A stretch of DNA of 64,000 nt, from positions 1,056,001 through 1,120,000 of the forward strand of contig CBDAOB010000005.1 of assembly GCA_965197905.1 (NCBI GenBank), read 5' to 3'. Positions 20,303-49,188 of the stretch are shown piece by piece. The notes below the pieces were generated by a model. It worked only from the letters and a program-made list of their open reading frames with translations. It was not told the DNA's origin and made no database searches. How positions within the stretch are numbered: the first letter of the stretch is position 1; each line of letters starts with the position of its first letter. The DNA comes from Candidatus Latescibacterota bacterium. Lineage in GTDB: Bacteria > Latescibacterota > UBA2968 > UBA8231. Made by a program: the position numbers and the translations under genes.

Positions 20303-23293
20303 TTGAGCCGTTCTTTGATTTTTCGGGGCAGGTTCTTGCCAGTGGCCCTGGCAGGATGGATAGTGGGGGTGCAAGCCGAGGAACGAGTACTCATACCCGA
20401 GCTAGTGCCTTCGCGTCCCTTCCTGCGGCATGAGCGTCCGATTTACCGCAACTACGCCTTCCGGAACTTTGCCAATTACCCGAACCATTCCTCCCCTTAT
20501 ACTGATCAAGCTCGAGCGTACTACAGCTCAATGGCCAACTACCTCACTACTGGCTATTCGCTTTACGAGTGGAGCGAGACGCGCTTGCCCGGGCAACAGT
20601 ATGGCAGCAGCCTTTCCAAAGACATGCAAGCGGGTGCGGCAGCCTCGGGTCTGTGGATCCCCGTTTTCGACAGCATGGTCATGGGGCGCGACGGCTACGG
20701 TGGTTGGGGTTACAGTGCCATTGTCGGGGACGCGCTGATTGCGCGCTTCACACCATTGACCCTATCGATGGTGGATTTCAACGGCATCCGGATGGATCTG
20801 TCCATGCCGCACCTGCAGCTCACCCTTCTCGGCTCGCGCATTGAGCGGCCCAAGGCTTACCAGGAAACACCTTCCCAGTGGTCTGTCGAGAACACCCATT
20901 ACGCCGATGACAACACCGTACTCTTGGGCAGCAGGGTGCAAACGCAGATAGGCTCCCTGCTCTTGGGCCTGAACGGGGTCAACCTGCACGTGTACAGAAG
21001 CACCCAGCCCGGCAACAGCCTGAAGGGCGTTTTGCGTCCTGACCTGCCCCTGGTTAACTGGCTGATAGTGCGCTTTAAGGATGACTCGCCAACGGATGGC
21101 GCGGGCGGTCCGGTTGTCCAGGACGTTCAGCTTGTTGTCAACGGCACCGCGCGGCCCGATCTGCGACCCAGGGTTATCCGCCACCGGCAGGGCATTCCCA
21201 CCCAGGTGGGGAGCGTCTCCAGGGCGACGGGCGAATTCCGGCCGATCACCTATTACAGCTTCTCGGGTCGATACCAGAGCCAGCCGCTCTACTACCGCGG
21301 GCGGGACGAGGCCCCGAAATATGCGGACTATCTCTACCGCTTTGACTACGAGGAAGGCGACGAGGCAGTGCGCCAGGAGGTAGCCGACAACACCAATCTC
21401 CCGGGTCTGCTCGCCGATTACCTGGTGGAATCTCCGGACGAGATTCTGCACGCGGACGGGGACGAGCTCCTGATCTATATGTTTGAACTGACGTCGGAGC
21501 CTCACCTAGAATCGGTGGAGGTGGAGGCTCTTGTGGGCAATGATTACCGCGCGGAAGTGAGCTTTCTGACTGGTCAAAACGAGCGCGCCCGAGACTATCC
21601 TTCGATGTTCAGAACCACGTTCTACCAGACGGCGCTGCGGGCCGAGGGCAATGTTCAGGATCTGTCGAACCTGAAGCGGGTGCGCTTTTCGGTAGGGGAG
21701 CACACCGCCCTGTTCACCTACAGCGCCGATATGCATCTTGGCGTGGCCGGGCTTGAGATCAACGGCGAATACGCGCGCTCTGCACGTTATTCGCGCTATC
21801 CGGCGCAGCTGGACGGGGAGCCCATCTTCGATCAGGCAAGTCGATCGGTGGAGCACGGCTCGGCCTATTTCCTCAATGCTACCCGCTGGTTTGGACCGGC
21901 ACGAGCGGGCGGAGAGTACTTCTCCATGAATCCCGACTTCCAAACCGGGATGCGCAACTTTGTGGACATGGAGTCCGGATTGTGGGAAACCAACCTGGCG
22001 TCGATGGCCAACACCACCGTCTACTGGGACCTGGTGGAGGACAACGAAGACGGGGATCGCTATCCGGATTTCCGCATCGGAAATCTCTTGGGGATGCCCT
22101 TTGATAGTCAACACTACGATCCCGATGGGGTTTTCCCGGGGCAGGATGACGATGTTGATGGCTTTCCGGACACAAACCGTAATGGCAATACGACTCCCGA
22201 CTACGAAGAGCCGTTCCTCATGTACTACGTAGAACCGATCGACTACGTATATGGGCTCGACCGCAACAACAATGACCAACCGGATGTGCGCGAAGACGAT
22301 CTGGATTTCGACTACCCCTACGACCTCGACCAGCGCGGTTATCATCTCTTCGGGCTGATGGATTTGACCAGACACTGGTCGGTGGGTGTGGGGCGCTACG
22401 CGATCGAGCAGGTCGTGGGCGCCGGACGCAACAAATCTGTGTACGCGCAACTGAGCTACCGCCGGGAGGGGGTCGCCCGCCTCCGCCGGCTGTTCTTCGA
22501 GAACCACTTTCGCCGGGTAAAGGACGATATTGCGGACGAAGCCAGGCTAGTGGATGAGAACCCGAGACGGGACCGTCGGTTGGGCTACCGAGGTCCGGAA
22601 CCGGTGGCCACAGGGGAGATAGGTCCACCCATCTTTGGCAGCAGCTTGCGGCAGGATCCGCTGCTCTACCAGGACAGCTACGTGGGGGAATCTTATCTGG
22701 AAGCACGACTGCGGCCCTGGTCTACCCTACGTTTGGCACAGCAGCTGCGCTTGCGGCTCAACTGGCAGCAGAAGGGGCAGTTGCCAAGCGGTCTCGAGCA
22801 GCGTCAGCGGCGGATGGACTTCTGGACGGTGGTCAGTCAGGCGGAATTCACCTGGTACTGGGGGAAGCTGAGTCTGACGCCGCAAGTCAAGTTCATGCAC
22901 TTGCGTCTGGTGGACCAGCAAGCCGACCGGCTGGCCAACGGAGATTACACCAGCCGGGACCTGACGTCCGAGTTCCGGACGATTCCGATCCTGCGCTTAG
23001 AGTATCCGCTGATGAGCCGAACGATGCTCCAAGCGGGGTTACAGGGGTTGGGGCCGTTGCCGTACAAGGTTGAGGACCGCGTCCGCAGTCGCAACAGCTT
23101 TGAGCAGCACACCGCATTCTTTACACTGACCAACCGCAAGCGGTATTTTGGCTACGATCTCTACACCGCTATCGGGGTAACCAAAGACAAGAAGGAATTC
23201 GACGATCCCTTCCGGCAGGCCGATGAGTTTGATGTCTGGTCGTTTTTTATCCGGACGTTGATTGGCTTCACCGAGTACGGTCGCTTGATCTGA
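20303..23293 (+). CDS. Uncharacterised ~1000-aa exported protein, paralog family copy A1
   Basis: 996-aa ORF with a signal-peptide-like N-terminus; aligns end to end with four other copies in the window. The start codon is uncertain. Confidence 0.85.
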   Translation: MSRSLIFRGRFLPVALAGWIVGVQAEERVLIPELVPSRPFLRHERPIYRNYAFRNFANYPNHSSPYTDQARAYYSSMANYLTTGYSLYEWSETRLPGQQYGSSLSKDMQAGAAASGLWIPVFDSMVMGRDGYGGWGYSAIVGDALIARFTPLTLSMVDFNGIRMDLSMPHLQLTLLGSRIERPKAYQETPSQWSVENTHYADDNTVLLGSRVQTQIGSLLLGLNGVNLHVYRSTQPGNSLKGVLRPDLPLVNWLIVRFKDDSPTDGAGGPVVQDVQLVVNGTARPDLRPRVIRHRQGIPTQVGSVSRATGEFRPITYYSFSGRYQSQPLYYRGRDEAPKYADYLYRFDYEEGDEAVRQEVADNTNLPGLLADYLVESPDEILHADGDELLIYMFELTSEPHLESVEVEALVGNDYRAEVSFLTGQNERARDYPSMFRTTFYQTALRAEGNVQDLSNLKRVRFSVGEHTALFTYSADMHLGVAGLEINGEYARSARYSRYPAQLDGEPIFDQASRSVEHGSAYFLNATRWFGPARAGGEYFSMNPDFQTGMRNFVDMESGLWETNLASMANTTVYWDLVEDNEDGDRYPDFRIGNLLGMPFDSQHYDPDGVFPGQDDDVDGFPDTNRNGNTTPDYEEPFLMYYVEPIDYVYGLDRNNNDQPDVREDDLDFDYPYDLDQRGYHLFGLMDLTRHWSVGVGRYAIEQVVGAGRNKSVYAQLSYRREGVARLRRLFFENHFRRVKDDIADEARLVDENPRRDRRLGYRGPEPVATGEIGPPIFGSSLRQDPLLYQDSYVGESYLEARLRPWSTLRLAQQLRLRLNWQQKGQLPSGLEQRQRRMDFWTVVSQAEFTWYWGKLSLTPQVKFMHLRLVDQQADRLANGDYTSRDLTSEFRTIPILRLEYPLMSRTMLQAGLQGLGPLPYKVEDRVRSRNSFEQHTAFFTLTNRKRYFGYDLYTAIGVTKDKKEFDDPFRQADEFDVWSFFIRTLIGFTEYGRLI

Positions 23294-23519
23294 CCCAGCA
23301 GATCAAAAATATCTTGCCTGTTTGCGCCAGCCCGGGCAGCGTACTGAACCTGACCAGATCGCGGCCGTTGTCCTGTTTCTCTGTTCCCCCGGGCGGGCTG
23401 CATCAACGCCGCGAATCTCGTCGCAGACGGTGCTCTTTCTCTGAGCAATTGGACCCTATGGATCGATCCTGAAGTGCTGTTAGGCTTCGACGACGACATC
23501 AAACACTATTCAGGTACTC

Positions 23520-24242
23520 GTGACGAAATATTCGGCTTCTTTCAATGAGAACGGCTATTGCGTGGCCAGGGGGCTTTTCCCGCCACCCGAGATGGCTGCG
23601 CTAGAAGAAGAATTCGACCGCATTGTGCTACAGTGTGGCCCGGTGAACGAAAGCGGGATCGTAAGCACGAAAAACGTTCACCAATATTCTGGCCTCTGGA
23701 TGTCGCTGATTCTCGACCGCCGGCTACTGGATATCGTGGAGCAACTGATCGGCCCCGACGTCGTGCTCAACCATACGACCCTGTTTCAAAAGGAACGCAC
23801 GGACGCGGTAGGGCCTTTTCGCATGCACCAGGATTGGAGCTATCTATCGACCTTGAACGACACCATGATCGGGGCCATGATTCACGTCAGCGAGGCGACC
23901 GAGGAGATGGGCTGTCTGAGGGTTTATCCCGGTTCGCACAAGCGCGGTCGCATGGAGGACTCGTCAGCGGGAGATGAGTCGTTCCACGAGAAATTTCCGT
24001 TCGAGAACGTGACGGCGATTGCGTGCCAACCTGGGGATGTGGTTTTCTTTCACTACTTTACCGTGCATGGTTCCGTTTCGAATCAATCGGACAAGCCTCG
24101 CAAGGTAGTGTTCGTGCGGATGTTCTCCGGGAAGGACCGCAAGGAAGACATCTACAGATTCGCTGAGAATCTGGTGTTGCGGGGTTGGAACCACCATGCA
24201 TCGCCGGCTACGACGATGCGGGGGGTGCCGAAACCCCAGTAG
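23520..24242 (+). CDS. Phytanoyl-CoA dioxygenase (PhyH) family Fe(II)/2OG oxygenase
   Basis: F.ENGY, HQD (HxD), GCLRVYPGSH, PGDVVFFH...VHGS..N.S..PR. Confidence 0.9.
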   Translation: MTKYSASFNENGYCVARGLFPPPEMAALEEEFDRIVLQCGPVNESGIVSTKNVHQYSGLWMSLILDRRLLDIVEQLIGPDVVLNHTTLFQKERTDAVGPFRMHQDWSYLSTLNDTMIGAMIHVSEATEEMGCLRVYPGSHKRGRMEDSSAGDESFHEKFPFENVTAIACQPGDVVFFHYFTVHGSVSNQSDKPRKVVFVRMFSGKDRKEDIYRFAENLVLRGWNHHASPATTMRGVPKPQ

Positions 24243-24338
24243 GCGGCGCAAGGTTCGCTGTCCGCCCAATGAAACTAGCGTTGGCGGATTCGTTGAGACT
24301 CTGGCGCCACCCGACAGTCGCTGCCCGCGAGTGCCGGC

Positions 24339-25674
24339 TTACCCGAGGTCCAGCGGATCATCCAGTCGGGACTGCCAAGCGGCCAGGTTGGCGCGGAGCG
24401 CGGCGATGCGGTCGGCGTGGGCGGGGTCGCCCGAAAGATCGTTCAGTTCGGCGGGGTCCGCGTCCAGGTCGAACAGCTGCGTCCGGCGCGCGCCTTCGAC
24501 GAGGTATTCGATGAGCTTGAAGCGCTCATCTTTGACCGTGCGCATGTAGTCACCATAGGCGCAGTAGATCGAATCGCGGTGGGTGTCTGCGCCGCCGGTG
24601 AGCACGGGGACCAAGCTTCGGAACTCATTCTGCGCGGGAATGTCCGCGCCGGCCGCTTCCAGAAGCGTGGGAAAGAGATCGTGTTGGTAGCAGAGCGCAT
24701 CCGTCCGACGACCCGCCTGGATGCCCGGTCCACGGACGATCAGCGGCATGCGGATGCTGTGGTCGTAAACGTTCTGCTTGCCGAGCAGGCCGTGCTGGCC
24801 TACGCCCAGGCCGTGGTCGCCCGTGTGGATCACGATGGTGTTATCGGCGCGGCCGGACTTTTCGAGCGCATCGTGAATGCGGCCGATGCATTCGTCCATG
24901 TGGGTGACCATGCCGTAGTAGTCGGCGATGTGCTGGCGCACTTCGAATTCGGTACGGGGGTGCGCGGCGAGGTCTTCGTCGCGACCAGACCGCATGCCGT
25001 TGTCGAACGGGTGCTCGGTCATGAAATTCGGCGGCAGCGGCACGGAATCGGGATCGTAGGTGTAGCCCTCAGGAGGCGTGCGCGGATCGTGCGGCGCAGT
25101 GAAGGCCACATAAAGAAAAAAAGGCGCGTCGCCTTCATATTCGTTCAAAAAGCCGGCGCCGGCGCCGGCGAACATATCCGACGAGAACGCTTCGCCGATA
25201 TACATCTTGTCTTTGGGGTACACGCCCTCCGGATCGAAGTCGTAGGTGGGGACCGAGTCATGGCTGCTCATGCCGCCGAAGAAAATTTTGCCGGCGGAAT
25301 CAAAGCTGCGCACGTGCGACGCGCGTTGGTTGTGCCATTTCCCCGTGGCAAAGGTCCGGTAGCCGGCGCCTTGCAGAATCTGGCCGAGAGTCTGGTGCGG
25401 CTGATCGGTGGCCGTGCTGACGTCGCCCGGTGCGGCCCGGCGGCTTCCATATGATTCGTCGTATGGAAGAGCGTGGTGCCGGTATGCAGCATCGCACGGC
25501 TTGGCACGCAGACAGCGCCCTGAAGCGAACCAGATGATGCGCTCGCGTGAACGCGGTGCCCTGATCGCAGAGCCGGTCCAGGTGCGGAGTGCGGACGTTG
25601 GGATCACCGAGGCATCCGACCATGTCGTGGCGTTGGTCGTCTGCGAACGTGATCAAAATATTCGGGCGTGCCAT
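24339..25674 (-). pseudogene. Sulfatase (choline-sulfatase/arylsulfatase-like) with two frameshifts (~25532 and ~25435)
   Basis: Spread over three frames: MARPNILITFADDQR...TPHLDRL, then GAVCVPSRAMLHTG (CxPxR signature), then GYRTFATGKWHN...APHDP...DHG...GKQN. Confidence 0.8.
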
Positions 25675-25863
25675 GGAGCAGGCCTCCGGGTTCAGCCGAT
25701 TTTGGCGAGCACGGCCTTCATCTGTTCCAGGACCGCGCAGGGACGTTTCAGCTAGCCCACGGTACTGTCGGGCTTGCAGACGTGGTGGCAGTCCGATCCT
25801 CTGGAGACGCACAGGCTGTCTGCACAGTATGGGCGTGCCCTCGCGGGCGCCAACGCGCCAACA

Positions 25864-26688
25864 TCATCGCTCCGTCGGAAAGTGCTGCGCCGCGTGCTCC
25901 GCCATATCCTCCGTCCACTGGCTGTAGAACTCTCGAGTTGCCGCGTCGGGATGTCGCGCCAGACGTTCCGGCACCAACATCCAGTAGGTCAGAGGCGGGT
26001 TTGTCACATGGCTGTAGTAGGTATGCTGGGTACGGCGGCCGTGGGTGCAGGCGTCAACGCCGGTAACGCGGGCGTGGAAGATATCGATGTTGTAAAGGAT
26101 GCCGGTTCCCGCCTTGCCTCGAATGGGTACCTCCCGGTAGTTCGTCATCTGAGCGCGCGCCTCTTCCTTGGTTTGATAGCGGTGGCTGTCGGGCATCACG
26201 CAGAAGCAGGGGCAACAGTCGTGGACGTCCCACAGATAGTAAATGGCGCAAAGATAGGCGCATTCAAACGGAATTTCTTTACGGCGGTTCAGCGCAACCT
26301 TACGCCGATCTCGATGGAAATCCATGGCGCAGTCGCCGGCGTTCTCCGGGAGCGCCTCGCGGAAATCAAACTGAGCGAACCGAACGCCCTTCCCCAAGAT
26401 CGCCTCCACTAGCGGATAGGAACGAGGCGGTTGCACATGGCGATCCAGTTCCGGATGCTCCACCAGGATCTGGCCATGGCCGTGCATCTCGCCACCGATT
26501 CCCCATTTTCCGGGAATCTCGCGTTGGGAACGGTCGACAAATGCGTTGAGGGTGCTCACCTCCTCTTCGCTGAGGGCGTCTTCAATAACGACGTAGTTGT
26601 TCTCCTTGAAGAACTGCAGGATGTCGTCGTGCTGGTGGTGAAGAAAAGTGGAGGCTTCCAAAGAGTGCCGCTCCTTCAAAAGGTTCAA
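25864..26688 (-). CDS. PhyH-family Fe(II)/2OG oxygenase
   Basis: FFKENNYVVIEDAL, FHRD (HxD), PDSH and KAG...LY....FHA motifs. Confidence 0.8.
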   Translation of the reverse strand: MNLLKERHSLEASTFLHHQHDDILQFFKENNYVVIEDALSEEEVSTLNAFVDRSQREIPGKWGIGGEMHGHGQILVEHPELDRHVQPPRSYPLVEAILGKGVRFAQFDFREALPENAGDCAMDFHRDRRKVALNRRKEIPFECAYLCAIYYLWDVHDCCPCFCVMPDSHRYQTKEEARAQMTNYREVPIRGKAGTGILYNIDIFHARVTGVDACTHGRRTQHTYYSHVTNPPLTYWMLVPERLARHPDAATREFYSQWTEDMAEHAAQHFPTER

Positions 26689-26722
26689 GGTTCGTTTATG
26701 CGGACTATACGTACTGGCACCA

Positions 26723-26877
26723 TCAGACCCCGTCCCAGCGCATGGTTTGCAGCGGAAAGATATAGCCCTTCTCGTTAAACTGTTTTACCTGGGCCGGCGT
26801 CAATGTTTTGGGCGACTCACCCGCCGGAAAAAACGCAACTCCCGTTCCATATCCGGCAGGGCATCCGTCAATGCCAT
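26723..26877 (-). pseudogene. 5' remnant of a PhyH-family gene
   Basis: GGAGAAGGA RBS then ATG: MALTDALPDMERELRF(F), a frameshift in a T-run, then PAGESPKTLTPAQVKQFNEKGYIFPL and an early stop. 'LT..Q...F...GY..P' is the PhyH N-terminal motif. Confidence 0.6.
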
Positions 26878-26930
26878 ATCCTTCTCCCAATCTACTTATC
26901 TAAAGCATGGTCATAATTTAGTTATATTTT
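26853..26930. repeat. 78-bp direct repeat, copy 1
   Basis: 73/78 identical to 29398..29475 by manual alignment. Confidence 0.92.
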
Positions 26931-27021
26931 TTCGCAGTGGCGGAGAGTGTGCAGTGGCGTTCGCTGGCGCCGATTCTACGGGCTTCGCCTTGATGGCCGT
27001 CCTATCTACCATCCCGTTGTA

Positions 27022-27327
27022 TCACTTCAAGGATTGAACTTCTGAATGCGCTGCAAAGGTGGTCAGATCCACCTCGCGGATCACCGCCAACGTATCGACG
27101 GTGACCAGACCCTGTACCTGGCGCAGAACCCAATACTCGGCGAACGGTTGTTTGCCGTCGTAGGGAGTCCAGTCGACAACAGCCGTCCCGGTCCCCGGGT
27201 CCAGTGACACCGTCACCGCCACGGCGGGTGTCAGCTTAGGATCGAACGGGTTTTTGCGCGGCGTGTCATGGCATCCGACAACCGCCAAAGAGAAGGCCCC
27301 TATCAACGTCTGTATTATTCGATTCAT
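27022..27327 (-). pseudogene. Lipoprotein, apparently 3'-truncated (FN3-like start)
   Basis: Lipobox AVVGC followed by R.NPFDP; beta-strands 'VVDWTPY...FAEYWVLR' end abruptly. Confidence 0.5.
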
Positions 27328-27652
27328 AACAGAATTCCTGGATTGACAGATCTGAATAATACCATGCAAAGTGGGGGCCAACAACAAAAAAGCGTCCAGA
27401 GGAGCACGCTAAGCGCTTGAAGCGAAGTCAGTTACGGAGTTGAAAGAGAGTTATTAGCAGCGGGGAATTGCCATTGAGATAGTCCGCGATACCGGACTGC
27501 GGTCCTGCATCCCGTACTAGGGCTACTTGGAGACGGGGAATTTGGCCTTGATATGGGCTGGCTTATCAACAGGCTGGGCCACTCTGTCCGGCTGGCATTA
27601 AGCTCATGCTGGACCTTCGCCTATTGCCCCGTATCTTTTCAGGCAAAGGGAG

Positions 27653-28684: not shown

Positions 28685-28754
28685 AAGGTCCGATGCTGCG
28701 GTTGGCACCCGATTGATGAATGCCATGACATGAAAGGGCAAGACGCTCTTGGAT

Positions 28755-29357: not shown

Positions 29358-29397
29358 GCTGGGTCCGGCTACTGGGCGCGAAGGCGCAGGCGACGCG

Positions 29398-29475
29398 CCG
29401 GCAGGGCATCCGTCAATTCCATATCCTTCTCCCAATCTACCTATCTAAAGCATGGTCACAATTCAATTATATTTT
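29398..29475. repeat. 78-bp direct repeat, copy 2
   Basis: 73/78 identical to 26853..26930. On the minus strand it carries an RBS and ATG GAA TTG ACG GAT GCC CTG CCG. Confidence 0.92.
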
Positions 29476-30457: not shown

Positions 30458-30475
30458 CTCGGTGGATAGCTGCTT

Positions 30476-30619: not shown

Positions 30620-30627
30620 CAGGATCT

Positions 30628-32976: not shown

Positions 32977-35866
32977 ATGACGCAGCGATCCTTCCAGGCG
33001 TATTGGGCTCTAGGGCTGTTTGTATGGACGGCCGGGCATACTGAGGAACCACCGCACCTAGCGTCTCCCGAGGTGACGGGGACCCGACCTTTTCTGCGCT
33101 ATGAACGGCCGCCCTACCAGAACTACGCCATCAACCACTTCACCAATTATCCGGAGCACACCTGGAGGCACGGCAATCTTGCGCTTGGGCTCTCGGGGCC
33201 GAAAGGACACGGCGACGGCATAGGCGTTGATCGGCCTCAGGCCATGTGGAGCCCACTGGGGGAGTACCTCATGACCGGCTACGACCTGTTCAGCTGGGTG
33301 GAACGACGCCAGCCGGAACAGCGCGAGGGCAGCGAGGCCTTCAATGACGGGGCGGCATGGGACGTCTTTAACCAGGTGGCATTGGGGCGCGACGGATACG
33401 GGGAGTGGGGTTACAGCGCCATTACGGGCGATGGATTGATCGCTCGCTTCACACCGCTGACGTTGTCGAAGACGGATTTCGACGGTCTGCGCCTGGATCT
33501 ATCCCTACCCCATGTGAAGTTCACCGGTCTGGGCTCGCGGATGGGCGTCTTTTCCAGAACCGATATGACCATGCTTCTCGGCGCCCGCGCCCAGGTCGAT
33601 CTGGGCGTTTTGAGCCTGGGTTTAAGCGGAGTGAACCTGCACCGCTACGACCCCACACAGCCGGGCAACAGCATGAAAGGCAGACTGCCTCCACGCCAAC
33701 CGCTCTTTGAGTGGCTCATCGTGCGCGTTGCGGATGACGCGCCCACCGACGGCCGCGGTGGAGCTGTAGTGCAGGAGGTACGCCTCATTCTCAATGGCCA
33801 ATTGCAGCCCGATATCCGCCCCCGGGTGATCCGGCACCAGGCCCGAACGCAGTCTCAGGTGGGGGTCCATTTAAGGTCAACGGGTGCCTTTTTAAGGGCC
33901 AGCTACAACCATGTCGAGGGCTCTTCCCAGTATTACCGGGGTCGGGAGAAACCGCTCTTTGCGGACTATTTCTATCGCCTGGCACACGAAGCGGGGGCGG
34001 AGGTGAGCAAGGATACCTACCTGGAGGGTCTGCTGGCGAATTTTGCGCTTGAAGCATCGGAGGGAACCAAACACGCCGATGACGCGGAGCAACTGGTCTA
34101 CCTCTTCGATCTGAGTTCGGTGCGCTACGCTGAATCGGTGGAGGTGGAAGCGGTTCTGGGCAATGACTACCGGGTGGAGTGGGCCGGAATATACGTAAAC
34201 GAGCCCCTTGCCCAGGACCGCCGATTCGACCGCCGATTCCGCAGCACCGTTTACCGCACGGCCCTGCGGGCCAGGGGTAGCGTACAGGATGGATCGAATC
34301 TCAAACGAGTGCGCTTCAACGTGGGCGAAAACACCGGGATTTTCACCTACAGCGTGGATATGCACCTGGCGCTCCCAAGCGTCGAGATCAGCAGCGAGTA
34401 TGCGCGCTCGGCGGTATATGCGCGCTATCCGACGCACCTAGAGGGCCGCAAATTGTTCGATGCGGGGCCGCGTTTTGCGAATCGGGGTTCGGCCTATTTC
34501 ATCAATGCGTTGCACAGGTTCGGGCGCGGCCGCGTCGGGGCGGAGTACTTTACCATGAATCCCGACTTCACCACCGAGATGCTGACCTCCGCCCCCCCCT
34601 GGTTGGACAACCAGACGATCATCTGGCACCTGGTGCAGGACAACGAGGATGGAGACCGTTGGCCGGAGGTCCGCCTGTGGGATGTTTCCGGCAGTCCACG
34701 GACAACCTACCCCGGGGCTTACCCTTCGGATGGAGACGGGACGTTTCCTGGTCAGGACGAGGACCGCGACGGCCTGGTGGACACGGATCGCAATCTCAAT
34801 GCCATCCCCGACTACGAGGAGACCTTCCTGCTCTACGAAGTGGAACCCAACGAGTACGTCTATGGCCTGGACCGCAATCACAACGACGAGCCGGATGCGC
34901 GCGAAGACGATTGGGACGCGGATTACCCGTACGATCCAAACCAGCAGGGCTATCACCTTTTCGGGCAGATGGATCTAAGCCCACACGCATCTCTGGAGCT
35001 GGGGCGCTACGCCATCAAAGAGCTCGTCAGCTGCGGACGCAACCGCTCTTTCTATGTTGAGCTACCGCCGGGAGGGGGTCGCGCGGCTGCTACGGCTCTT
35101 TTTCGAGAACAACTTCCGCCGGGTGCAGGACGACATTGCCGATAAATTCGCCCAATTCGAAACAGACGGAATCCAGGTGTTGGATTCTCCTGCGGAGCTG
35201 GACTGGGCTGGCGGACGAGTGTTTCACTACAAGGGTGGAAACAGGTCTCACCCGGATCTCCTGGACTATCAGGACAGCTACGTCAACGAGACCTACCTGG
35301 AGGGGCAGCTGCGTCCCTGGTCGACGTTGAACCTGGTGCACAAGCTGCGCTTGCGGCTCAACTGGCAACAGGGCGGCCGGCTGGCTAATGCCCGTTTCCA
35401 GCGCGCGCGCCGGCTAGACTTCTGGACGATGGTCAGTCGCGCAGACTACACCTGGGATGTCGGCAAATTAAGTCTAACCCCGCAATTCAAGTTCTTGCTC
35501 CTGCACCTAAAAGACCAGAAAGCCGACCGCTCCTTGCGCACCGAATACCGGGTGATTCCGATCCTCAAACTGAGCTACCCTTTGATGAGCCGGACCGTAC
35601 TGCAAGCCGGGTTCCAGGGTTGGGGCCCGGTACCCTATCGGGTGGAAAACCGGACCCAGAAGCGCGAGAGCTTCAAACGGCGCACCGCCATGGTTACCCT
35701 TACCAACCGTTCGCGCTATTTCGGCTACGATTTGCATACGATCATCGCTTTCAACCGGGAGGAGTTGAAGTTCGACGAACCTTTTCAACGCTACAAGGAA
35801 GTAGACGGCTGGTCCTTTTTAGTGCGCGGACTGGTGGGGTTCACCGAATATGGACGGTTGATCTGA
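32977..35866 (+). pseudogene. Uncharacterised ~1000-aa exported protein, paralog copy A2, frameshifted at ~35056
   Basis: ORFs 32977..35145 and 35054..35866 are consecutive halves. NRSFY-G-LSYRREG lacks 5 nt relative to the Y-x-x-L-[ST]-Y of the other copies. Confidence 0.85.
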
Positions 35867-39071: not shown

Positions 39072-39097
39072 TTGAGATCTATGGGGAAATCTGGGGG

Positions 39098-39436: not shown

Positions 39437-42385
39437 ATGTTCAGACTGTCGCAAATCCTCTGCCTCTGCTTGGCGATCACACATGCCGGCGCCGAGGTGT
39501 CTGAGCGCCTCGAGGAGGTGACCACGGCGCGCCCGTTTCTGCGCTGGCCCCGGCCTGCTTACCACAACTACGCCTACCAGAACATCACCAACTTCCCCGG
39601 TCACGTGTTTCCCTACGTGGACACGCCGAAAGACCATTACGGCTTCTTCGGTAACTACCTGATAACCGGGTACGATCTCTACAAATGGGAGGAGACGCGC
39701 GTCTTGGGTCAGGAGTTTGGCAGCGCCATTTTCAAGGAATTTGGTGTGGATGAGGCGGGGGGTACCTGGCCCAACGCGTTCGATTACATGGTGGCCGGCC
39801 GCGGTGGTTACGGAAGCTGGGGTTACAACATCATCGCTGGCGACGCTCTGATCGCCCGCTTCACCCCGTTGACTCTATCCAAAGTGAACTACAACGGCGT
39901 GCGTCTGGATGTTTCCACACCCTATCTGAAGGTCACGGGTCTGGCATCGAGGCAGGAGCGGCCCAAGGACAGAATTCGACGGGTCGATAGGGCCCTTCAA
40001 GCAAAAACCCATTTTGCCGACGATTCCAACTTGCTTCTGGGCAGTCGAGCCCAGGTGGATCTGGGTCGTCTCCAGGTAGGTCTCAATTGGGTGAACCAGC
40101 ACGTATACCAGAGCACCCGGACCGGCAATAGCCTCAAGGGGCGGTTGAAACCGGACCAGCCCATGATGGACTACCTTCTCGTCCGTTTTACGGACGATTC
40201 TCCGGGCGACGGCACCGGCGGTGCCGTGGTGCGGGACGTCCGGCTCGTGATCAACGGTGAAGCGCGGCTGGACGTGGCGCCACGCGTAATCGGCCATCTG
40301 GCAGATCCTCCCGTGCAGATAGGTTTTGTTTCGGCGATCACGGGGAGATTCACCCCTTTGCCCTACAACCTGTTGTCGGCCTCGGGCGGGGGTACGGGCT
40401 TTTTCAACGAGACTTTTTATCGCGAGCGCGATTATCCGCTCTTTGCCGACTACCTGACGCGCCTCGATCACGCCGCCGGCGTCGACGTGAGCAAAGTGGG
40501 CCATATCGCAGGTCTGGAAGCCAACTACCAGGTGCATTCGCCTGGGGACGAGCTCCGTGCCGACGGCCAAAGACAGCTGGTCTACCTATTCGATCTGTCG
40601 GCCGAACCGGCCGTCCAATCGGTGGAGGTCGAAGCACTGCTGGGCAACGACTACCACGTTGACGTGGCCATGCTGTACAGCAAAAGTGAGGTTGGTGCTG
40701 CCTACGCTGACAGATTCCTGCCCACCTTCTATCACGTCGTCCTGCGCGCCGAGGGCAATGTAAGGGATTTGTCGAACCTCAGACGGGCGCGGTTCTCGGT
40801 GGGGGAGAACACCGGCCAGTTCGTCTACGGTGCCGACGTGCAGCTGCTGCTGCCGAGCTTGGAGATCCACGGCGAGTACGCGCGGTCCAGTGTGTACTCG
40901 CGCTACCCGGCCCGGGTGGGTGGGCAACCCGCGTTCGATGACGCGCCGCGTTTCAGCAATCGGGGTGCGGCCTACTTCCTCAACGCCGTGCATCAGTTTG
41001 GACGCGGGCTCGTGGGCGCTGAGCTGTTCTCCATAGATCCCGGATTTCAGACGGAGATGCGCTCCTACCTGCACGAAGAGTCCGCTCATTGGTTGGGCAT
41101 GTTTTCGGCGGTGGTCAACAATACCATGTACTGGCAATTGGTAGAAGACAACGACGACGGCGATCGCGATCCCGACCGCCAGTTCGGCAATCCGGTGGCC
41201 CTCAGTCCGGACCAGGTGGGGACGGACCTCGACGGCGTCTGGCTGAATCAGGACGAGGACAATGACGGGGCACCCGACATCAATCGCAATCTCAATCGGG
41301 TGGCCGATTTCGACGAGCCGTTTCTGATGTTCTATGTGGAGCCCAACAGCTACGTGTATGGGCTCGATCGCAACAACAACAACGAGCCGGATCCGCGCGA
41401 AGACGACGGCGACGTCGACTATCCGTACGACTATGACCAGGACGGTTGGCATCTTTTCGGCCAATGGGAGCTGACGCGGCACTGGTCCCTGGGCTTGGGC
41501 CGCTACGAGGTGGCAGAGATAGCCGGTGGCGGGCGCAACCGCTCCACCTACGGGTTGCTGAGCTACCGACCCGTCGAGCTCGGCTGGTTGCGGCGCTTCT
41601 TTTTCGAGAGCGGCCTGCGGCGAGTGCGGGATGACATCCCTGACGAGATCATGACCTTCAATCCAGACGTAGGGGCTCGGACAGGCGCCTACCGTCAGCG
41701 TGGGATCTTCTACGCACAAGGTGCAGACACCGGTTTTGGCCTGCCGGTCTTCACATTCGTCGACTTCATACCGGATCTGTTGTTCTACCGGGACAGCTTC
41801 GTGAGCGAAACCTATCTGGAGGGCAATCTCAGGCCGTGGTCGAAGTTGGATGTGAAACAAAAGCTTCGCCTGCGTCTCAACTGGCAGCAGGGTGGACAAC
41901 TCTACAACGGCGATGTCCAGCGCGATCGCCGACTGGATTTCTGGACCTGGGTGAGCAAAGTGCAGTATCCCATGTATTGGGGCAGCCTGAGCCTGACGCC
42001 CCAGTACAAGTTCATGATACTGCGCTCGGTCGACCGCGAGCGCGACGTGCGGCTGCAGTCAGAATATCGCTCGATTCCGATTCTGCGACTGGAGTATCCG
42101 CTTTTGCGCCGGACGTCGATGGCAGCGGGCATTCAAGGTATAGGCCCGGTGCCGTACCTGCGCGAAAACCATGCGGACAGAAGACTGAGCTTCGAACAGC
42201 GCACGTTCTTTGTTTCCCTCAGAAATCGCTCGAAGTATTTCGGCTACGAGCTGGTGACGATCGTCGGGTTCAACAAAGACAAGGTAAGTTTCGATGACAT
42301 CTCCCAGAAAGATCGAAACCTAGACTTGTGGACCTTCTTTGTGCGAACCGTGATTGGTTTCACGGATTTTGGGCGCCCCCTTTGA
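39437..42385 (+). CDS. Uncharacterised ~1000-aa exported protein, paralog copy A3
   Basis: 982-aa intact ORF with a clear signal peptide (MFRLSQILCLCLAITHAGA) and all family motifs. Confidence 0.88.
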   Translation: MFRLSQILCLCLAITHAGAEVSERLEEVTTARPFLRWPRPAYHNYAYQNITNFPGHVFPYVDTPKDHYGFFGNYLITGYDLYKWEETRVLGQEFGSAIFKEFGVDEAGGTWPNAFDYMVAGRGGYGSWGYNIIAGDALIARFTPLTLSKVNYNGVRLDVSTPYLKVTGLASRQERPKDRIRRVDRALQAKTHFADDSNLLLGSRAQVDLGRLQVGLNWVNQHVYQSTRTGNSLKGRLKPDQPMMDYLLVRFTDDSPGDGTGGAVVRDVRLVINGEARLDVAPRVIGHLADPPVQIGFVSAITGRFTPLPYNLLSASGGGTGFFNETFYRERDYPLFADYLTRLDHAAGVDVSKVGHIAGLEANYQVHSPGDELRADGQRQLVYLFDLSAEPAVQSVEVEALLGNDYHVDVAMLYSKSEVGAAYADRFLPTFYHVVLRAEGNVRDLSNLRRARFSVGENTGQFVYGADVQLLLPSLEIHGEYARSSVYSRYPARVGGQPAFDDAPRFSNRGAAYFLNAVHQFGRGLVGAELFSIDPGFQTEMRSYLHEESAHWLGMFSAVVNNTMYWQLVEDNDDGDRDPDRQFGNPVALSPDQVGTDLDGVWLNQDEDNDGAPDINRNLNRVADFDEPFLMFYVEPNSYVYGLDRNNNNEPDPREDDGDVDYPYDYDQDGWHLFGQWELTRHWSLGLGRYEVAEIAGGGRNRSTYGLLSYRPVELGWLRRFFFESGLRRVRDDIPDEIMTFNPDVGARTGAYRQRGIFYAQGADTGFGLPVFTFVDFIPDLLFYRDSFVSETYLEGNLRPWSKLDVKQKLRLRLNWQQGGQLYNGDVQRDRRLDFWTWVSKVQYPMYWGSLSLTPQYKFMILRSVDRERDVRLQSEYRSIPILRLEYPLLRRTSMAAGIQGIGPVPYLRENHADRRLSFEQRTFFVSLRNRSKYFGYELVTIVGFNKDKVSFDDISQKDRNLDLWTFFVRTVIGFTDFGRPL

Positions 42386-42547: not shown

Positions 42548-45500
42548 TTACAACATGCTCCCAAATTCAGTAAAACCGACGGCACTGCGAACGAAGAACA
42601 GGAGACCGTTGGCGTCGCGGAATCGCTGCCCCGGATCGTCGAATCTGAGCTTGTCCCTGCCGACACCGACTATGGAAATAAGCTCGTAGCCTAGATAGCG
42701 CGTCCGATTGGTCACGGTGAAGGTTGTGCTTCTCTGCTTGAGACTCTCGCGAGATTGCGCCTTGTTCTTTACGCGGTAGGGCAATGGACCCCAACCCTGA
42801 ACCCCCAGCTGCAAGGTCGTTTTCGGCATGATCGCATAGCTCATGTTCAGGATCGGGACGATGCGGTGCTCGGACTGGAGATCGATGCCCGACTCGTTGT
42901 CGCGCAGGCGCAGGTAGAGAAACTTGAAGCGGGGCACCAGATCGAACTTTCCGAAGGTCCAGGCATACTCGACGCGGTTTACGTACGCAAAGAAATCGAT
43001 CCGCCGGTTCTGCTGAAACTGCCTGGTCGGCAGTCTACCGCCTTGCTGCCAGTTGAATCGCAAGCGCAGTTTCTGGACCAGTCTCAGCTTTTGCAACGGC
43101 CGCAGGTGCCCCTCTAGATAGCTTTCGTTCACATTGCTCCTCTGGTAGAGCAGGATATCCTCGCGTCGAAGCAGAGTGCCCGAAAACCGCTGTATCAGAC
43201 CGATGAAGAGGGCGTCATACGGATCCACGGTGGAGAGACGAGCTCCCCTGCTGAACTGGTTGTAGGCGTCGGCGATATCATCCTGCACCTGCCGCATGCT
43301 GCTCTCGAAAAACAGCTGCCGCACGCGTCCCAGTCCCTGCCAGCGGTAGGTCAACAGCGCGTAGTCGGAGCGATTGCGGCCGCCGCCTGCCTGGTCCTTC
43401 ACGGCGTAGCGCCCCAGGCCGACCGACCAGTGCGGCGAGAGATTCACCTGTCCGAACAGGTGATAACCACGCTGGTTCGGATCGTATGGATAGTCCGGCT
43501 GCCAGTCATCCTCCCGCACATCCGGCTCGTCGTTGTTGTTGCGGTCGAGACCGTAGACATACTCGTTCGGCTCCACATCGAAAAGAAGGAAGGGTTCGTC
43601 GTAGTCCGGCGTGCCGTTGAAATTGCGGTCGGTATCTATCAGACCATCCTTGTCCTTATCCTGTCCGGGGAATACGCCGTCCTGATCCGGATTGACCGGA
43701 GCGACTCGTCCACCGCCTCCCTGCTGAGGACTCCCAAGAACATTGCCTGCCGCAATGTCGGGCCAGCGGTCGCCGTCCTCGTTATCCTGCACCAGGCGCC
43801 ATATGATGCTGTCGTTGGTCATGAAATGGTACGGGCTGTACCCGCGGCTGGCCTGGTAGCCGTAATCCTTCTTCAGAAAGGTCGGCATCTCAGTGGTGAA
43901 ATTGGGATTCATGGAGAAGGTCTCGAAACCAAAGACACCGCGGTCGAAGCGGTGAATGCCGTTGAGGAAATAAGCGGTGCCGCGTGTCGCGAAGCGCGGC
44001 CCTTCATTCACTACGGTTTGGCTCAGTGAGCGAGCCGGGTAGCGGGAATAAAGCGCGGATCGCGCGTACTCCGCACTGATATCCACCCAGGGCAAGGTCA
44101 GTTGTAGATCGGCGCTGTAGGTGAAGATCGCGGTGTTCTCCGCCACCGCGAAGCGCCGGCGCGCGAGGTTGGAGAGATCCTCTACCCGTCCTGGCGCCCG
44201 CAGGGCGGTACGCAGGAAAGTGCTCTGGAAGCGATCCTCGTGACGTTCCGCGGAGGCATTGGCAATGTTGAGGTCGACACCGGCCCACTCCACCAAGTAG
44301 TCGTTGCCCACCACCGCCTCCAGGTATGGTTCTTCCCTGAGATCGAAGAGGTAGACCAACTGCTCGCCGCCGTCGGCGTGCAGGATCTGGCCCGGCGATT
44401 CGAGCTGGAACTCTTCGAGCAGGCCCTCCAACCGTACCTTCGACGTAACGTCCACCCCCGCGTCATGTTCCGCCCGGTAGAGGAAATCCGCAAATAACGG
44501 CAGCTCACTGTCCCGGTAGTAGACGACCGGTCCTTGAACTGCGGTGTAGGTCGAGGGAATGAATCGACCGGTGCTCAGGGTGCGGCCCGCCTGGGGTCGA
44601 GCTCCCGCACGCTTGCGAATGATGTGGGGCAGGATATCGGGGCGCAGTTCGCCGTTAATTACGAGCTGGACGTTTTGGACGGCCGCGCCGGGGCGCCCAT
44701 CCTCGGGAGCGTCGTCGGAGAAACGAACCACTATCAAGGAATAGGTCGGCTGGTCCTGCCGCAGTCGGCCCTTGATCGAGTTGTTGGTCTCGGTGCTGTT
44801 ATAGGAATGGAGGTTGGAACCCCAGCGATAGCTGTCCCAGATCCAGCTGGGCACGTCCGCCCAGGAGCAATGTGGAATGATCGGTATCGACCTCGGCGAC
44901 ATTCTCGTTGGGGGTGGTCGACTCTCGATTGGGCCGGGCGATGCGCGAGCCCAGGGTCGTGAGCTTCAGATGGGGCGTGGAAAGGTCCACCCGCAGTCCG
45001 TTGAAATCGGTCCGGGACAGGGTGAGGGGGGAAAGCCGCGCGATCAGGCCGTCGCCAACCATAGCCCGGTAGCCCCAGCTGCCATAGCCGTCGCTGCCCA
45101 CCACCACATTGGTGAACACCAGCTGCCAGGCCGACCAGTCCTTGAACAGGTGGCTGCCAAACCGCTGCTCCGCTTGGCGCCGCTCGACCCAGGTGAAAAG
45201 GTCGTAACCGGTGGTCAGGTGGTTGCCCATGAGATCGATCTTCGCCTGGGGCCGATCTACGCCCAACGCGATGCCATGCTGGGAACCTATTTGACGGGTT
45301 TTCCACGAGTGATCCGGATAGTTCTCGTAGTGATTGAATGCGTAGTTCCTGTATTCCGGCCGCGGATAGCGGATGCCGAATCGTCTTTCTGGAGTTTCGG
45401 GGGCAAAAAGGTCGTGTCTATCGTCGGCAAACAAATGCCCGGCCAGCAGTAGGCCGAGCAATGCGCAACGAAGGACACAGGGTATGGCAACCCTGTAGCT

Positions 45501-45551
45501 GGAGCCGAGGTGAGACCTGCCCCCGATGGTGCACCAATCGCCTTGCAACAA
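42548..45551 (-). pseudogene. Uncharacterised ~1000-aa exported protein, paralog copy A4, frameshifted at ~44816 with an in-frame deletion at ~44318
   Basis: ORFs 44799..45551 and 42548..44902 are consecutive parts. GF-c-NLH lacks 8 nt versus GFNGANLH in A5, and EPYLEAVVGNDY lacks SVEVE. The start is uncertain. Confidence 0.85.
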
Positions 45552-46140: not shown

Positions 46141-49100
46141 ATGGGACAGCTGATCATGTATTGGAGAGGATGGACTGAAACGCTCGGGCGCTGCGGCGGA
46201 AGGTCGGGTCATGGCTCTCCCGAGCGAGCCAGAAACCTGCGCTGGTTTGGGTTTTGTGCCTCCCTACTGCTGGTGCACGGGGTTCCCGCAAACGGTTACG
46301 TAGGCCCTGGTCCGTCAGAAACGACGGCGACGCGTCTTTCCTTTCGCTACACGCGACCCACCTACAAGAACTACGCGTACGATCTCTACCAGAACTATTC
46401 GGACCACACGTGGAGCACTCGCGGTATCGGCGGGCAGCACGGAATCGCATTCGGTGTCGAGCGGCCACGGACCGTAGTCGATTTGATGGGCAACTACCTC
46501 ACGACCGGTTACGACCTCTACACCTGGGAGGAGCGGCGTCAGCCGGAGCAGCGAACCGGCAGCGAGCTGTTCAAGGACTGGTCGGCATGGCAGTTGGTGT
46601 TCACCAACGTGGCAGTGGCCAGTGACGGTTATGGCGAATGGGGGTATCAGGCGATCGTGGGGGACGGTCTCATCGCGCGGCTCTCCCCCTTGACCCTGTC
46701 GAAAACCGATCTCTATGGGCTGCGGGTAGACGTCTCGACACCGCACCTCAAACTGACCGGATTGGCCTCCCGCATCGCCCGGCCGAACCGCGAGAGCTAC
46801 CTCCCCAGCGAGAATGTGGGCGAGGTAAGGGTGGATCACTCAACCATGCTCCTTGGGGGCCGGGCCCAGGTGGATTGGGGGGCGCTCAAGGTGGGGTTCA
46901 ACGGCGCCAACCTGCACGCCTACAACAGCACCCAGGAAAACAACTCGATAAAGGGTCTGCTGCGACGGGACCAGCCTCTGTACTCCTTTCTGGTGGTCCG
47001 TTTTTCGGACGAGGTTCCCGGGGACGGCCTGGGCGGGGCTGCAGTTCAGGATGTACGCCTGGTCGTCAACGGCGAGGTGCGGTCCGATATCGCGCCGCAT
47101 ATCATTCGCAAGCGAGCGGGGAGCGGCGTCTACTCCGGGCGCGTGCTGAGGACCGGATTCATTGCCAGCGCCTACAATAAAATCACCGGGCCGAGACCTT
47201 ACTACCGGGATCGGGAGATACCACTCTATGCCGACTTTCTATATCGGCTGGATCACGAAGCCGGCGAGGATGTCTCCAACGTCACCTTGCTGACTGGTCT
47301 GATAGACGAATTCCAGCTGGAACCCCCGGGGCAGATTCTGCGCGCCGACGGCGACAAGCAGCTGGTCTACTTCTTCGACCTGCGGAACGAACCGCATGTC
47401 GAGTCGGTGGAGGTGGAAGCGGTGGTGGGGAACGATTACAAAGTCGAATGGGCCGGGGTGTATCTCAACAGAGGCAGTGCCACGGCGGAGCGCTACGAGG
47501 ACCGCTACTCGAGTACGATCTACTATCCCGCCATGCGGTCCCGAGGCCGCGTCGAGGATCTGTCCAATCTCTCGCGCAAGCGTTTCTCAGTGGGGGAGAA
47601 TACGGCGATCTTCACCTACAGCGCTGATATGGAGCTGGTTCTACCCTGGATGGATCTCAGCGGCGAAATCGCGCGTTCCGCGCTCTATTCCCGCTACCCT
47701 GCGCAGGTGGGAGGGGACCCAATGCTGGACGAGGGCCCGCGTTCCGTCCATCGAGGCAGCGCCTACTTTCTCAACGGCCTGCGCCGCTTTCGGCGCGGCA
47801 TCATGGGGTTCGAGCTGTTCTCAATCAATCCGGAGTTCACCACCAAGATGCCCACCTACCTGCGGAAGGATTTCGGCTATACCGCCAGCCGCGGTTACGA
47901 TCCCCTGGCGCAGCTGGACCGAAACACCGTGATCTGGAGCCTGGTGCAGGACAACGAGGATGGAGACCGCTGGCCAGACATCCTGGTGGGCAATGTCCTG
48001 GGCAGCCCGTACGGCAGCTCCGACCTGGACGGAATCTTTCCCGGTCAGGACGCCGACTACGATGGCCTGGTGGATACGGATCGAAACTTAAACGGTACTC
48101 CCGACTACGACGAGACCTTTCTGGTCTTTGAGGTGGAGCCGAACGAATACGTCTACGGGCTCGACCGCAACAACAACAACGAGCCGGATATCCGGGAGGA
48201 CGATTGGCAGCCGGACTACCCGTACGATCACGACCAGCGCGGCTACCACCTTTTTGGACAGCTGGACCTCACGCCTGCTTGGTCGTTGGGCCTTGGGCGC
48301 TACGCGGTTCGGGGACTGGCCAGCGGCGGCCGCAATCGCTCGGCTTATGCGCTCTTGACCTACCGATGGTTGGGGCGCGACCGCGTGCGCGAGCTGTTCT
48401 TCGAGAATAATCTGCGCCGCGTAAAGGACGACATCGCCGATCCTTACAATCAGTACAGCCAATCGGCGCAATGGGAGCTGAACAGCCCATACGACGCAGG
48501 CTTTACTGGCATAATTGCAAGAATAGATGGATCGTTGCTGCGGCGGGAAGACGTGCTCTTCTACCAGGACAGCTACGTCAATGAGACCTATCTGGAAGGG
48601 GACTTGCGTCCCGTATCGGGCCTGCAGGTAGTGCAGAAGCTTCGCCTGCGGATCAACTGGCAGCAGGGAGGTCTTCTTCCCAACGGAATGCTGCAGCGAC
48701 CGCGGCGCCTGGACTTCTGGACCACCGTCAGCCGGATCCAGTACACCTGGACCCTGGGCAAGCTGACCCTGATGCCGCAATACAAATTCATGCACCTGCG
48801 CCTGACAGACCGGGGCGCGGAACTCATCGGGGAAGGGAAATACGCCAGCCGCGACCTGCAATCCAGAACGACCACCGTTCCGATCCTGCGGATCTCATAC
48901 CGTATGCTGCCCCGCACGAAGGTGCAACTTGGGCTGCAGGGATTCGGATCACTGCCGTACAAGGTCGACGACCATGCGCGGTCGCTCGAGGGGTTCGAGC
49001 AGTACACCACCACGGCGACGGTGACTAACCGCTCCAGGTATTTCGGCTACGATCTACACACGATCGTCGGCTTCAGCAAGGAGCGGCTCATATTCGACAG

Positions 49101-49188
49101 CCGCCACCAGAGTTTCCGCAACCGGGATGGATTCCTTTTTTTCATCCGCGCCCTGATGGGTTTCACCGAATATGGGCGGATGCTCTAG
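46141..49188 (+). CDS. Uncharacterised ~1000-aa exported protein, paralog copy A5
   Basis: 1015-aa intact ORF with all family motifs. The true start may lie downstream, nearer the hydrophobic segment WFGFCASLLLVHGVPA. Confidence 0.88.
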   Translation: MGQLIMYWRGWTETLGRCGGRSGHGSPERARNLRWFGFCASLLLVHGVPANGYVGPGPSETTATRLSFRYTRPTYKNYAYDLYQNYSDHTWSTRGIGGQHGIAFGVERPRTVVDLMGNYLTTGYDLYTWEERRQPEQRTGSELFKDWSAWQLVFTNVAVASDGYGEWGYQAIVGDGLIARLSPLTLSKTDLYGLRVDVSTPHLKLTGLASRIARPNRESYLPSENVGEVRVDHSTMLLGGRAQVDWGALKVGFNGANLHAYNSTQENNSIKGLLRRDQPLYSFLVVRFSDEVPGDGLGGAAVQDVRLVVNGEVRSDIAPHIIRKRAGSGVYSGRVLRTGFIASAYNKITGPRPYYRDREIPLYADFLYRLDHEAGEDVSNVTLLTGLIDEFQLEPPGQILRADGDKQLVYFFDLRNEPHVESVEVEAVVGNDYKVEWAGVYLNRGSATAERYEDRYSSTIYYPAMRSRGRVEDLSNLSRKRFSVGENTAIFTYSADMELVLPWMDLSGEIARSALYSRYPAQVGGDPMLDEGPRSVHRGSAYFLNGLRRFRRGIMGFELFSINPEFTTKMPTYLRKDFGYTASRGYDPLAQLDRNTVIWSLVQDNEDGDRWPDILVGNVLGSPYGSSDLDGIFPGQDADYDGLVDTDRNLNGTPDYDETFLVFEVEPNEYVYGLDRNNNNEPDIREDDWQPDYPYDHDQRGYHLFGQLDLTPAWSLGLGRYAVRGLASGGRNRSAYALLTYRWLGRDRVRELFFENNLRRVKDDIADPYNQYSQSAQWELNSPYDAGFTGIIARIDGSLLRREDVLFYQDSYVNETYLEGDLRPVSGLQVVQKLRLRINWQQGGLLPNGMLQRPRRLDFWTTVSRIQYTWTLGKLTLMPQYKFMHLRLTDRGAELIGEGKYASRDLQSRTTTVPILRISYRMLPRTKVQLGLQGFGSLPYKVDDHARSLEGFEQYTTTATVTNRSRYFGYDLHTIVGFSKERLIFDSRHQSFRNRDGFLFFIRALMGFTEYGRML

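Follow-up and report, generated by a model that had tools for sequence, protein, structure and literature searches.

To our knowledge, TonB-dependent transporters account for almost all known active uptake across the outer membrane. Their barrel has 22 strands and is preceded by an N-terminal plug domain with a TonB box, and the barrel of SlpA_C has 30 strands; SlpA/OmpM proteins also form homotrimers and carry an N-terminal SLH domain and a coiled coil. The Agl-Glt system of Myxococcus comprises a TolQ/R-type motor, a TPR protein, a TonB-like protein, three outer-membrane barrels and an adhesin-like surface protein. Here we analyzed a 64,000-nucleotide (nt) stretch of a Candidatus Latescibacterota genome (the window), in which five loci, A1 to A5, within 20303..49188 encode members of a family of predicted giant outer-membrane barrels. 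The family falls into three types, A, B and C; type C has multiplied in this genome, and our best reading of its copies is that they are uptake receptors. For this phylum, the accessible part of the Latescibacteria genome paper mentions only non-specific porins and TonB receptors (PMC4454575).

As portrayed in the accessible parts of PMC7782687 and PMC10404256, the Ton system, with its SusC/SusD and BtuB/BtuG lid pairs, shares several features with the Latescibacterota family: a plugged barrel (the plug here being predicted), many paralogues among catabolic genes, a linked ExbB/ExbD motor (here beside a core operon) and a co-duplicated surface protein, here a predicted propeller. Unlike Ton receptors, the Latescibacterota barrels have no PF00593 match and at least 23 predicted strands. 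Their candidate main plug is an internal acidic insert, and one of the outer loops contains a predicted Ig-like domain. The partner shaped like TonB is headed by DUF4159, partner proteins bear tails of the type IX secretion system (T9SS) in place of lipid anchors, and the core operon encodes three barrel types.

Five paralogous loci in the window

An earlier interpretation of the same DNA from its letters alone (the sequence-only reading) described five collinear genes covering about 15 kb of a 29-kb stretch. Five paralogous loci are indeed found there, occupying 14,882 of the 28,886 bases of 20303..49188, but only three are intact: A1, A3 and A5 are whole open reading frames (ORFs) of 982-1015 amino acids, and A2 and A4 are frameshifted. 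Over 525-969 aligned residues, any two of the loci are 48-63% identical, and every locus scores above 1000 bits in hmmsearch, far beyond chance. A signal-peptide-like segment, read by eye, opens all five. The eight sequence motifs listed in the sequence-only reading were all recovered by regular expression in A1, A3 and A5 and across both pieces of A2 and A4, with the first motif relaxed to R.{1,8}Y.NYA and with A4 reading LRFN where the pattern has LR.N. The features are as follows; residue numbers here and below follow P0001, which is A1 numbered from window base 20363.

20303..23293, + strand: A1, intact type C barrel gene, 996 amino acids; closest paralogue C5:489,246 (the type C copy of the core operon), 59%
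20303..20377, + strand: A1, likely signal peptide (basic start, hydrophobic core, VQA|EE), by eye
20420..20623, + strand: A1, N-terminal segment, residues 20-87, with the Y.NYA motif, likely in the pore; predicted local distance difference test score (pLDDT) 48-91 (low confidence), couplings to strands 3-6
20675..20998, + strand: A1, first six predicted wall strands, residues 105-212; AlphaFold2 model and couplings
21005..21697, + strand: A1, predicted outer beta-sandwich insert, residues 215-445; separate fold prediction and fold searches
21698..21928, + strand: A1, middle four predicted wall strands, residues 446-522, with the below-cut-off SlpA_C match; model and Pfam
22028..22330, + strand: A1, acidic D/N-rich insert, residues 556-656, likely a Ca2+-bound pore plug; couplings, conservation and the ratio of nonsynonymous to synonymous substitution rates (dN/dS)
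22331..23266, + strand: A1, last thirteen predicted wall strands, residues 657-968, Arg/Lys-rich, with long outer loops; model and couplings
22526..22675, + strand: A1, longest indel-prone outer loop, residues 722-771; indel mapping
20624-20674, 20840-20908 and 22910-22960, + strand: A1, other indel-prone outer loops; indel mapping
32977..35866, + strand: A2, probable type C barrel pseudogene, frameshift near 35,055 (ORFs 32977-35145 and 35054-35866)
39437..42385, + strand: A3, intact type C barrel gene, 982 amino acids; recent paralogues C5:823,666 (83%) and C3:229,885 (79%)
42548..45551, - strand: A4, probable type C barrel pseudogene, frameshift near 44,825 (ORFs 45551-44799 and 44902-42548)
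46141..49188, + strand: A5, intact type C barrel gene (ORF), up to 1015 amino acids; the true start may be further down

The break in A2 is crossed without a gap by contigs from two studies, X2 and X3 (34158-35299 in both), and that in A4 likewise by contigs of X2 (44751-45228) and X3 (44762-45434). Because contigs of two studies cross both breaks ungapped, A2 and A4 are probably real pseudogenes; of the two runs, X2 may itself be the sample from which the genome came. Assembly error, considered as the source of the frameshifts, was rejected on the basis of the same contigs. A1-A5 do not form a local tandem array: apart from the N-terminal piece of A4, which pairs best with A5, each has its nearest paralogue outside this group. 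The one trace of expression, a 174-nt contig from a single sponge metatranscriptome with a sequence identical to A1, is too little to count.

Size and range of the family

Employing a family profile built from A1, A3 and A5, we obtained 72 ORFs in the genome (6.69 Mb in five contigs). Merged into loci, with 2 weak matches dropped, they gave 60 loci, far more than the five of the sequence-only reading: 44 single full-length ORFs (one without the last strand), 9 split full-length loci and 7 fragments, with 16 of the 60 thus broken or partial. The matched DNA makes up about 2.4% of the genome. The 44 full-length ORFs have a median identity of 50% (range 26-94%), and a broader profile found no additional members in this genome. 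Within a phylum sample of 168 Latescibacterota genomes, where the genome-based range was counted, a profile search found the family in 106, including 75 of 75 other genomes of the same family and 30 of 31 across nine other families; in four families the barrel was found in 0 of 61 genomes. At E 0.001, 788 proteins matched after 50% clustering. Named records with relatives are titled Candidatus Latescibacterota, and some Gemmatimonadetes or uncultured bacterium.

Pfam gave nothing above cut-off for the window copies, with SlpA_C alone below its cut-off, and NCBIfam gave no match to seven barrels. Searches of PDB sequences with two profiles returned no relative (one chance match at E 0.05), and a plasmid collection held no match to the family. 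In the ESM Atlas, only unnamed clusters matched at 0.98; the nearest named family, DUF6029 at 0.89, is a lead only. A gene for a DUF6029 outer-membrane protein is also present in the window (12988-14547, - strand), converging on genes for a 1253-amino-acid DUF5666 protein (7242-11003) and a protein with cohesin and a T9SS tail (10889-12454). No description of the family was found in the open-licence literature, subscription journals and supplements being outside the scope of the search. As the sequence-only reading, which recognized no named family, had suggested, the family is unnamed, and it is undescribed in the literature searched.

Predicted fold of the barrel

The AlphaFold2 model of A1, based on an alignment of 122 sequences, reached a pLDDT of 84 and a predicted template modelling score of 0.85. 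In it, 23 long strands follow one another, linked by short turns at one end and by long loops at the opposite end, the predicted pattern of an outer-membrane barrel with at least 23 strands. The barrel is probably closed at 24 or more strands by one or more N-terminal strands. Besides the strands that the sequence-only reading placed in the N- and C-terminal thirds, the middle of A1 bears strands as well in the model, four of them (446-522).

In our own mean-field coupling analysis (458 sequences, effective 259), each of the 23 wall strands had its sequence-adjacent strand as best partner, and 17 of the top 20 wall-wall coupled pairs (85%) lay no more than 2 strands apart, against a base rate of 17%. 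As judged from the alignment, the couplings recover the strand order independently of the model; they gave no resolution for the closing strand pair (the partner of the last strand). The N-terminal segment, coupled to strands 3-6, may fill the other half of the pore and may also contribute one or two strands to closing the wall.

Two inserts, 215-445 and 556-656, emerge on the loop side. Predicted alone, the former folded as a beta-sandwich with a helical excursion (pLDDT 89). The best match in its fold search had a Z of 4.9 (root-mean-square deviation (rmsd) 3.1, 100 aligned), and Foldseek gave no match at E 0.001; this lack of a match does not demonstrate a new fold.

For the whole model, the best Foldseek match was MtrB (PDB 6R2Q chain B; E 1.2e-7), a barrel of similar size; the TM-score was 0.25 at 6% identity, and, unlike in MtrB, the pore here is likely filled by the chain's own inserts. 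The top VIA match was SlpA (Z 13.3, rmsd 8.3 Å, 380 aligned residues), tied with maltoporin (Z 13.3). The top structural matches are large outer-membrane barrels, none of them close. Together with the signal-like starts and the phylum survey, the model agrees with the earlier proposal of an exported, lineage-restricted family of large barrels. The window copies gave no match to PF00593 (TonB-dependent barrel) at E up to 1, a profile with 27 matches elsewhere in the genome, and none to the Plug profile; no TonB box was recognized by eye. An SLH domain was also absent from the window copies, and the model has no long helix before the barrel.

The likeness to SlpA brings in another explanation: the family may consist of passive substrate-selective porins or structural SlpA-related outer-membrane proteins, with the motor genes described below serving another part of their operon. 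SlpA of Deinococcus (PDB 7ZGX, 8AE1; PF21620) is likewise a very large barrel with acidic inserts of metal-binding type, metal-stabilized in its pore (accessible part of PMC9388160), and besides being the top VIA match it is the source of the SlpA_C match (E 2e-5). That match is weak (23.7 bits against a cut-off of 35, about 90 residues). On the other side, the profile of 77 diverse members found no SlpA among PDB sequences. Unlike SlpA, the barrels have fewer than 30 predicted strands, lack an SLH domain and a coiled coil, occur in dozens of copies and are linked to an operon with a motor. Moreover, the DUF4159 protein of this operon co-occurs with the family across the phylum, and a structural tether needs no 40 or more divergent copies. 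We consider a porin or structural role improbable.

An acidic insert that most likely plugs the pore

The sequence-only reading described dense Dx[DN]xDG motifs in the middle of the protein. An acidic stretch does exist there, with 30 D/E among 101 residues in A1, but the strict motif occurs only once or twice per copy, and the TSP_3 repeat profile found no match at E up to 1. Loops rich in D, N and G of such type bind Ca2+, and the D/N/G pattern of insert 556-656 suggests that it is probably Ca2+-bound. Rather than being variable, the acidic insert is the most conserved part of the family: of the 52 columns that are near-invariant across 77 diverse members, 28 fall within it.

The third strongest long-range coupling, Y621-E828, connects the insert to a position near the periplasmic end of a wall strand; Tyr at this site pairs with Asp/Glu, and Phe often with Gln/Val. 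The 12th strongest is N636-R717. On average, the insert has 29 acidic and 7 basic residues, and the last 13 strands have 26 basic and 16 acidic ones. Because of these two couplings and the complementary basic excess in the last 13 strands, the insert is most likely located inside the pore, into which it would fold as a plug.

Three barrel types and a motor-linked core operon

A tree of 110 sequences split types A, B and C with support of 1.0, 0.999 and 0.977, and all but two of the placed loci in this genome belong to type C. Clearly, there are three ancient types, of which type C alone has expanded here, about 58-fold. In this genome the core locus (C5:471-492 kb) precedes the window by about 585 kb; types A and B and one C copy form a single run there with genes for TPR, DUF4159 and two discoidin proteins. 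Just upstream of this run, exbB-exbD-exbD is oriented divergently; no such genes stand beside the stand-alone copies. The sequence-only reading had contained neither this motor-linked operon nor the roughly 60 copies and the two frameshifts.

In divergent relatives, A, B and C are in tandem in one operon. Their partners are a 1080-amino-acid TPR protein, DUF5683, FN3, a membrane-anchored DUF4159 protein, a lipoprotein, a CsgG-like protein, ExbB and ExbD, and also a discoidin protein with a type B-like tail and a T9SS type A-tailed protein with a predicted propeller core, assigned from sequence and weak ESM Atlas leads (under 0.85). Among 18 fetched stretches, picked around divergent matches and ending at 20 kb or the contig end, the tallies were 8 for the TPR gene, 7 for discoidin (each time alongside the A/B/C operon), 6 for the propeller, 5 for DUF4159 and 3 for exbB. 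When the propeller partner of L067 (residues 25-626) was predicted in complex with the sandwich insert of the neighbouring barrel, the score was 0.00, which speaks neither for nor against binding.

The DUF4159 protein is shaped like TonB with another head. It was found in 78 of the 168 genomes, all 78 barrel-positive; 28 barrel-positive genomes had no match at E 1e-40, and the four barrel-negative families had it in 0 of 61 genomes. Because kin are non-independent, this pattern is co-inheritance in a few lineages, not 78 independent tests. In one family, f10, seven listed barrels have a DUF4159 gene within 1.7 kb. DUF4159 is itself multiplied in f10 (up to 10 scored matches), often adjoining stand-alone barrels (G060:C19, G061:C122/C158/C163, G062:C95, G053:C178/C571). 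The vWA-headed force transducers described in the accessible section of PMC12204202 similarly have a membrane anchor, a basic/proline-rich linker and a non-TonB head, along with TPR, one exbB-like and two exbD-like genes. They differ in that the head here is DUF4159 and most of the proteins here lack the His of the SHLS motif; no barrel partner is named for the transducers in that section.

By domain type only, the core operon, with its TolQ/R-type motor, TPR and TonB-like proteins in one cluster, also resembles the Agl-Glt machinery (accessible parts of PMC9946355 and PMC3169522). The barrels could accordingly be permanently plugged docking platforms that display or move T9SS surface proteins such as discoidin lectins and propellers, for adhesion or for surface motility, driven by ExbB/ExbD in the Agl-Glt manner. 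Such platforms would suit an operon that brings together three different barrels, the large TPR and TonB-shaped proteins, lipoproteins, a motor and secreted proteins resembling lectins; they would also suit the SprA, two PorU-like C25 peptidases and about 90 FlgD-like tails of this genome, and the weak likeness of the sandwich insert to pilin/adhesin Ig domains (Z 4.9). The resemblance to Agl-Glt is one of domain types, with no NCBIfam or Pfam match for seven barrels, and the barrels here are about 900-1000 amino acids long. One type has multiplied alone, without A, B or the motor, which a fixed motility machine would not need, and its copies sit among catabolic genes, while discoidin genes in the fetched stretches keep to the A/B/C operon. 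T9SS tails could instead be held by a separate protein such as the PorV-like one (by eye) of L085. This 317-amino-acid, small barrel-like product of a second ORF between the discoidin gene and barrel A is absent from the other fetched stretches. On balance, docking platforms appear unlikely.

Outer loops under purifying selection

Indels among the paralogues of this genome cluster at 88-104, 160-182, 722-771 and 850-866, all on the loop side, consistent with the conserved scaffold and diversified loops of the sequence-only reading. Over 50 independent pairs of 76-99% identity, dN/dS was lowest in the acidic insert (0.08), followed by the wall (0.16), the sandwich (0.18) and the outer loops (0.21), with indel-rich columns and insertions excluded and length variation thus uncounted. 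The outer loops are under purifying selection. Close orthologues are preserved between genomes at 95-98%. Of 1378 paralogue pairs, 4 share a 180-nt window more than 93% identical, all within pairs already 80-83% alike.

These results bear on the suggestion that the proteins are variable surface antigens, or decoys, evading phages or host recognition. The clustering of indels in outer loops and the 16 broken or partial loci would be compatible with it, as would a single recent pair with loop dN of 0.11 over dS of 0.06 and a few others with their highest dN in loops. Nevertheless, the pooled loop dN/dS is close to that of the wall, and orthologues are kept between genomes. Because loop dN/dS is 0.21 and there is no sign of cassette exchange, the evidence argues against a variable antigen, and we regard this role as highly improbable. 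The family evolves by slow divergence and birth and death of copies, not by antigenic switching.

Genomic setting of the copies

Copies occur only in regions rich in PhyH, hydrolase-like propellers and sulfatases. Of the 60 barrel genes, 11 have a member of the 18-copy propeller partner family within three genes, against 4% under local permutation (0 of 2000), and 13 have a DUF6785 membrane protein equally close, against 9% (p 0.0005); the families for these two tests were chosen after the counts were seen. PhyH and propeller-hydrolase neighbours barely exceed local permutation (p 0.09 and 0.05) and owe their frequency mainly to the catabolic half of the chromosome in which all of these genes lie. 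For a relative of A1 in L002 (87% identical), the best matches of its nine neighbours in this genome are scattered over contigs C2, C3 and C5, none beside A1 and one 31 kb away. The proposal that the window copies serve their neighbouring catabolic genes is therefore not supported.

The same half of the chromosome contains other expansions: about 129 PhyH-like dioxygenases, 122 unannotated propeller-like proteins of 500 amino acids, 80 Gfo/Idh oxidoreductases and 38 DUF6785 proteins. Contig C1, and C4 and C5 beyond 1.4 Mb, are nearly devoid of them. Two of the 122 propeller-like proteins are encoded in the window, with no Pfam match, and window positions 16873-20085 and 23520-32472 are part of these expansions. 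At 24339-25607 (- strand) lies a sulfatase ORF without the in-frame N-terminal part (Pfam match from profile position 75); it may be frameshifted, with indels at 25436 and 25529 in some contigs. At 49286-50182 (- strand), an FGE-sulfatase-like exported protein ends in a short WG.LK tail, which six genes of the genome have and which we take to be a motif of Poribacteria-like proteins.

A proposed uptake receptor

With moderate confidence, we propose that the type C genes encode gated, substrate-specific, motor-assisted uptake receptors, similar to TonB/SusC systems but built from unrelated parts; an uptake receptor had also been among the suggestions of the sequence-only reading. Each copy would be a closed receptor pore, shut by its own acidic, probably Ca2+-bound insert. 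Substrate would be caught by the outer loops and the sandwich, sometimes together with a secreted T9SS-tailed propeller. A shared ExbB/ExbD motor, encoded with the ancestral copies, may then pass force via the TonB-shaped DUF4159 protein and the TPR protein, and this force would shift or open the plug. Enzymes of the catabolic regions and inner-membrane carriers would take over the substrate. Repeated duplication has spread type C through the catabolic half of the chromosome, with turnover by birth and death, and would widen the substrate range while one motor is shared by all copies. The proposal combines gene content, copy number, range, the three types, the operon, conservation and purifying selection with a predicted fold, sandwich and plug and with transport steps that we infer. 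New in this analysis are the coupling evidence for an internal plug, the loop selection test and the contig check of both frameshifts.

Several observations weigh against an uptake receptor. Only 4 insert-to-wall couplings are strong (z of 7 or more), about the overall tail expectation, and one of them, N636-I967, fits the plug placement poorly; the placement comes from a few coupled pairs and charge, not from model coordinates. An invariant, metal-locked plug could also be permanent, as is argued for the inserts of SlpA in the accessible part of PMC9388160. The Ser-x3-His of TonB type, a motif taken from the section of PMC12204202 cited above, is present in the anchor of only 1 of 7 DUF4159 proteins inspected, and the stretches that document the operon are a selected set of limited length. 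In addition, 49 of the 60 barrel genes, including all five in the window, have no propeller partner nearby, and local neighbours are not kept between close relatives. The genome also encodes about two dozen classical TonB-dependent receptors (the 27 matches) and a separate TonB-ExbB locus.

More tentatively, and as a possibility we hold less firmly than the receptor role itself, Latescibacterota may have a second, independent form of energized outer-membrane import. It would consist of giant barrels with an internal calcium-locked plug, ExbBD acting via a DUF4159-headed arm and a TPR scaffold, and T9SS propeller or lectin lids. A single subunit, released from an ancestral machine of three barrels, would have multiplied dozens of times to supply interchangeable receptors. 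If this is true, active outer-membrane uptake arose twice, and there is a new gating mechanism to solve. As single-gene copies, the barrels can be expressed and their structures solved without culturing the host. Being present in most sampled Latescibacterota, which are abundant uncultured marine and sponge-associated degraders, and taking up such a share of this genome, the family likely shapes what these bacteria feed on.

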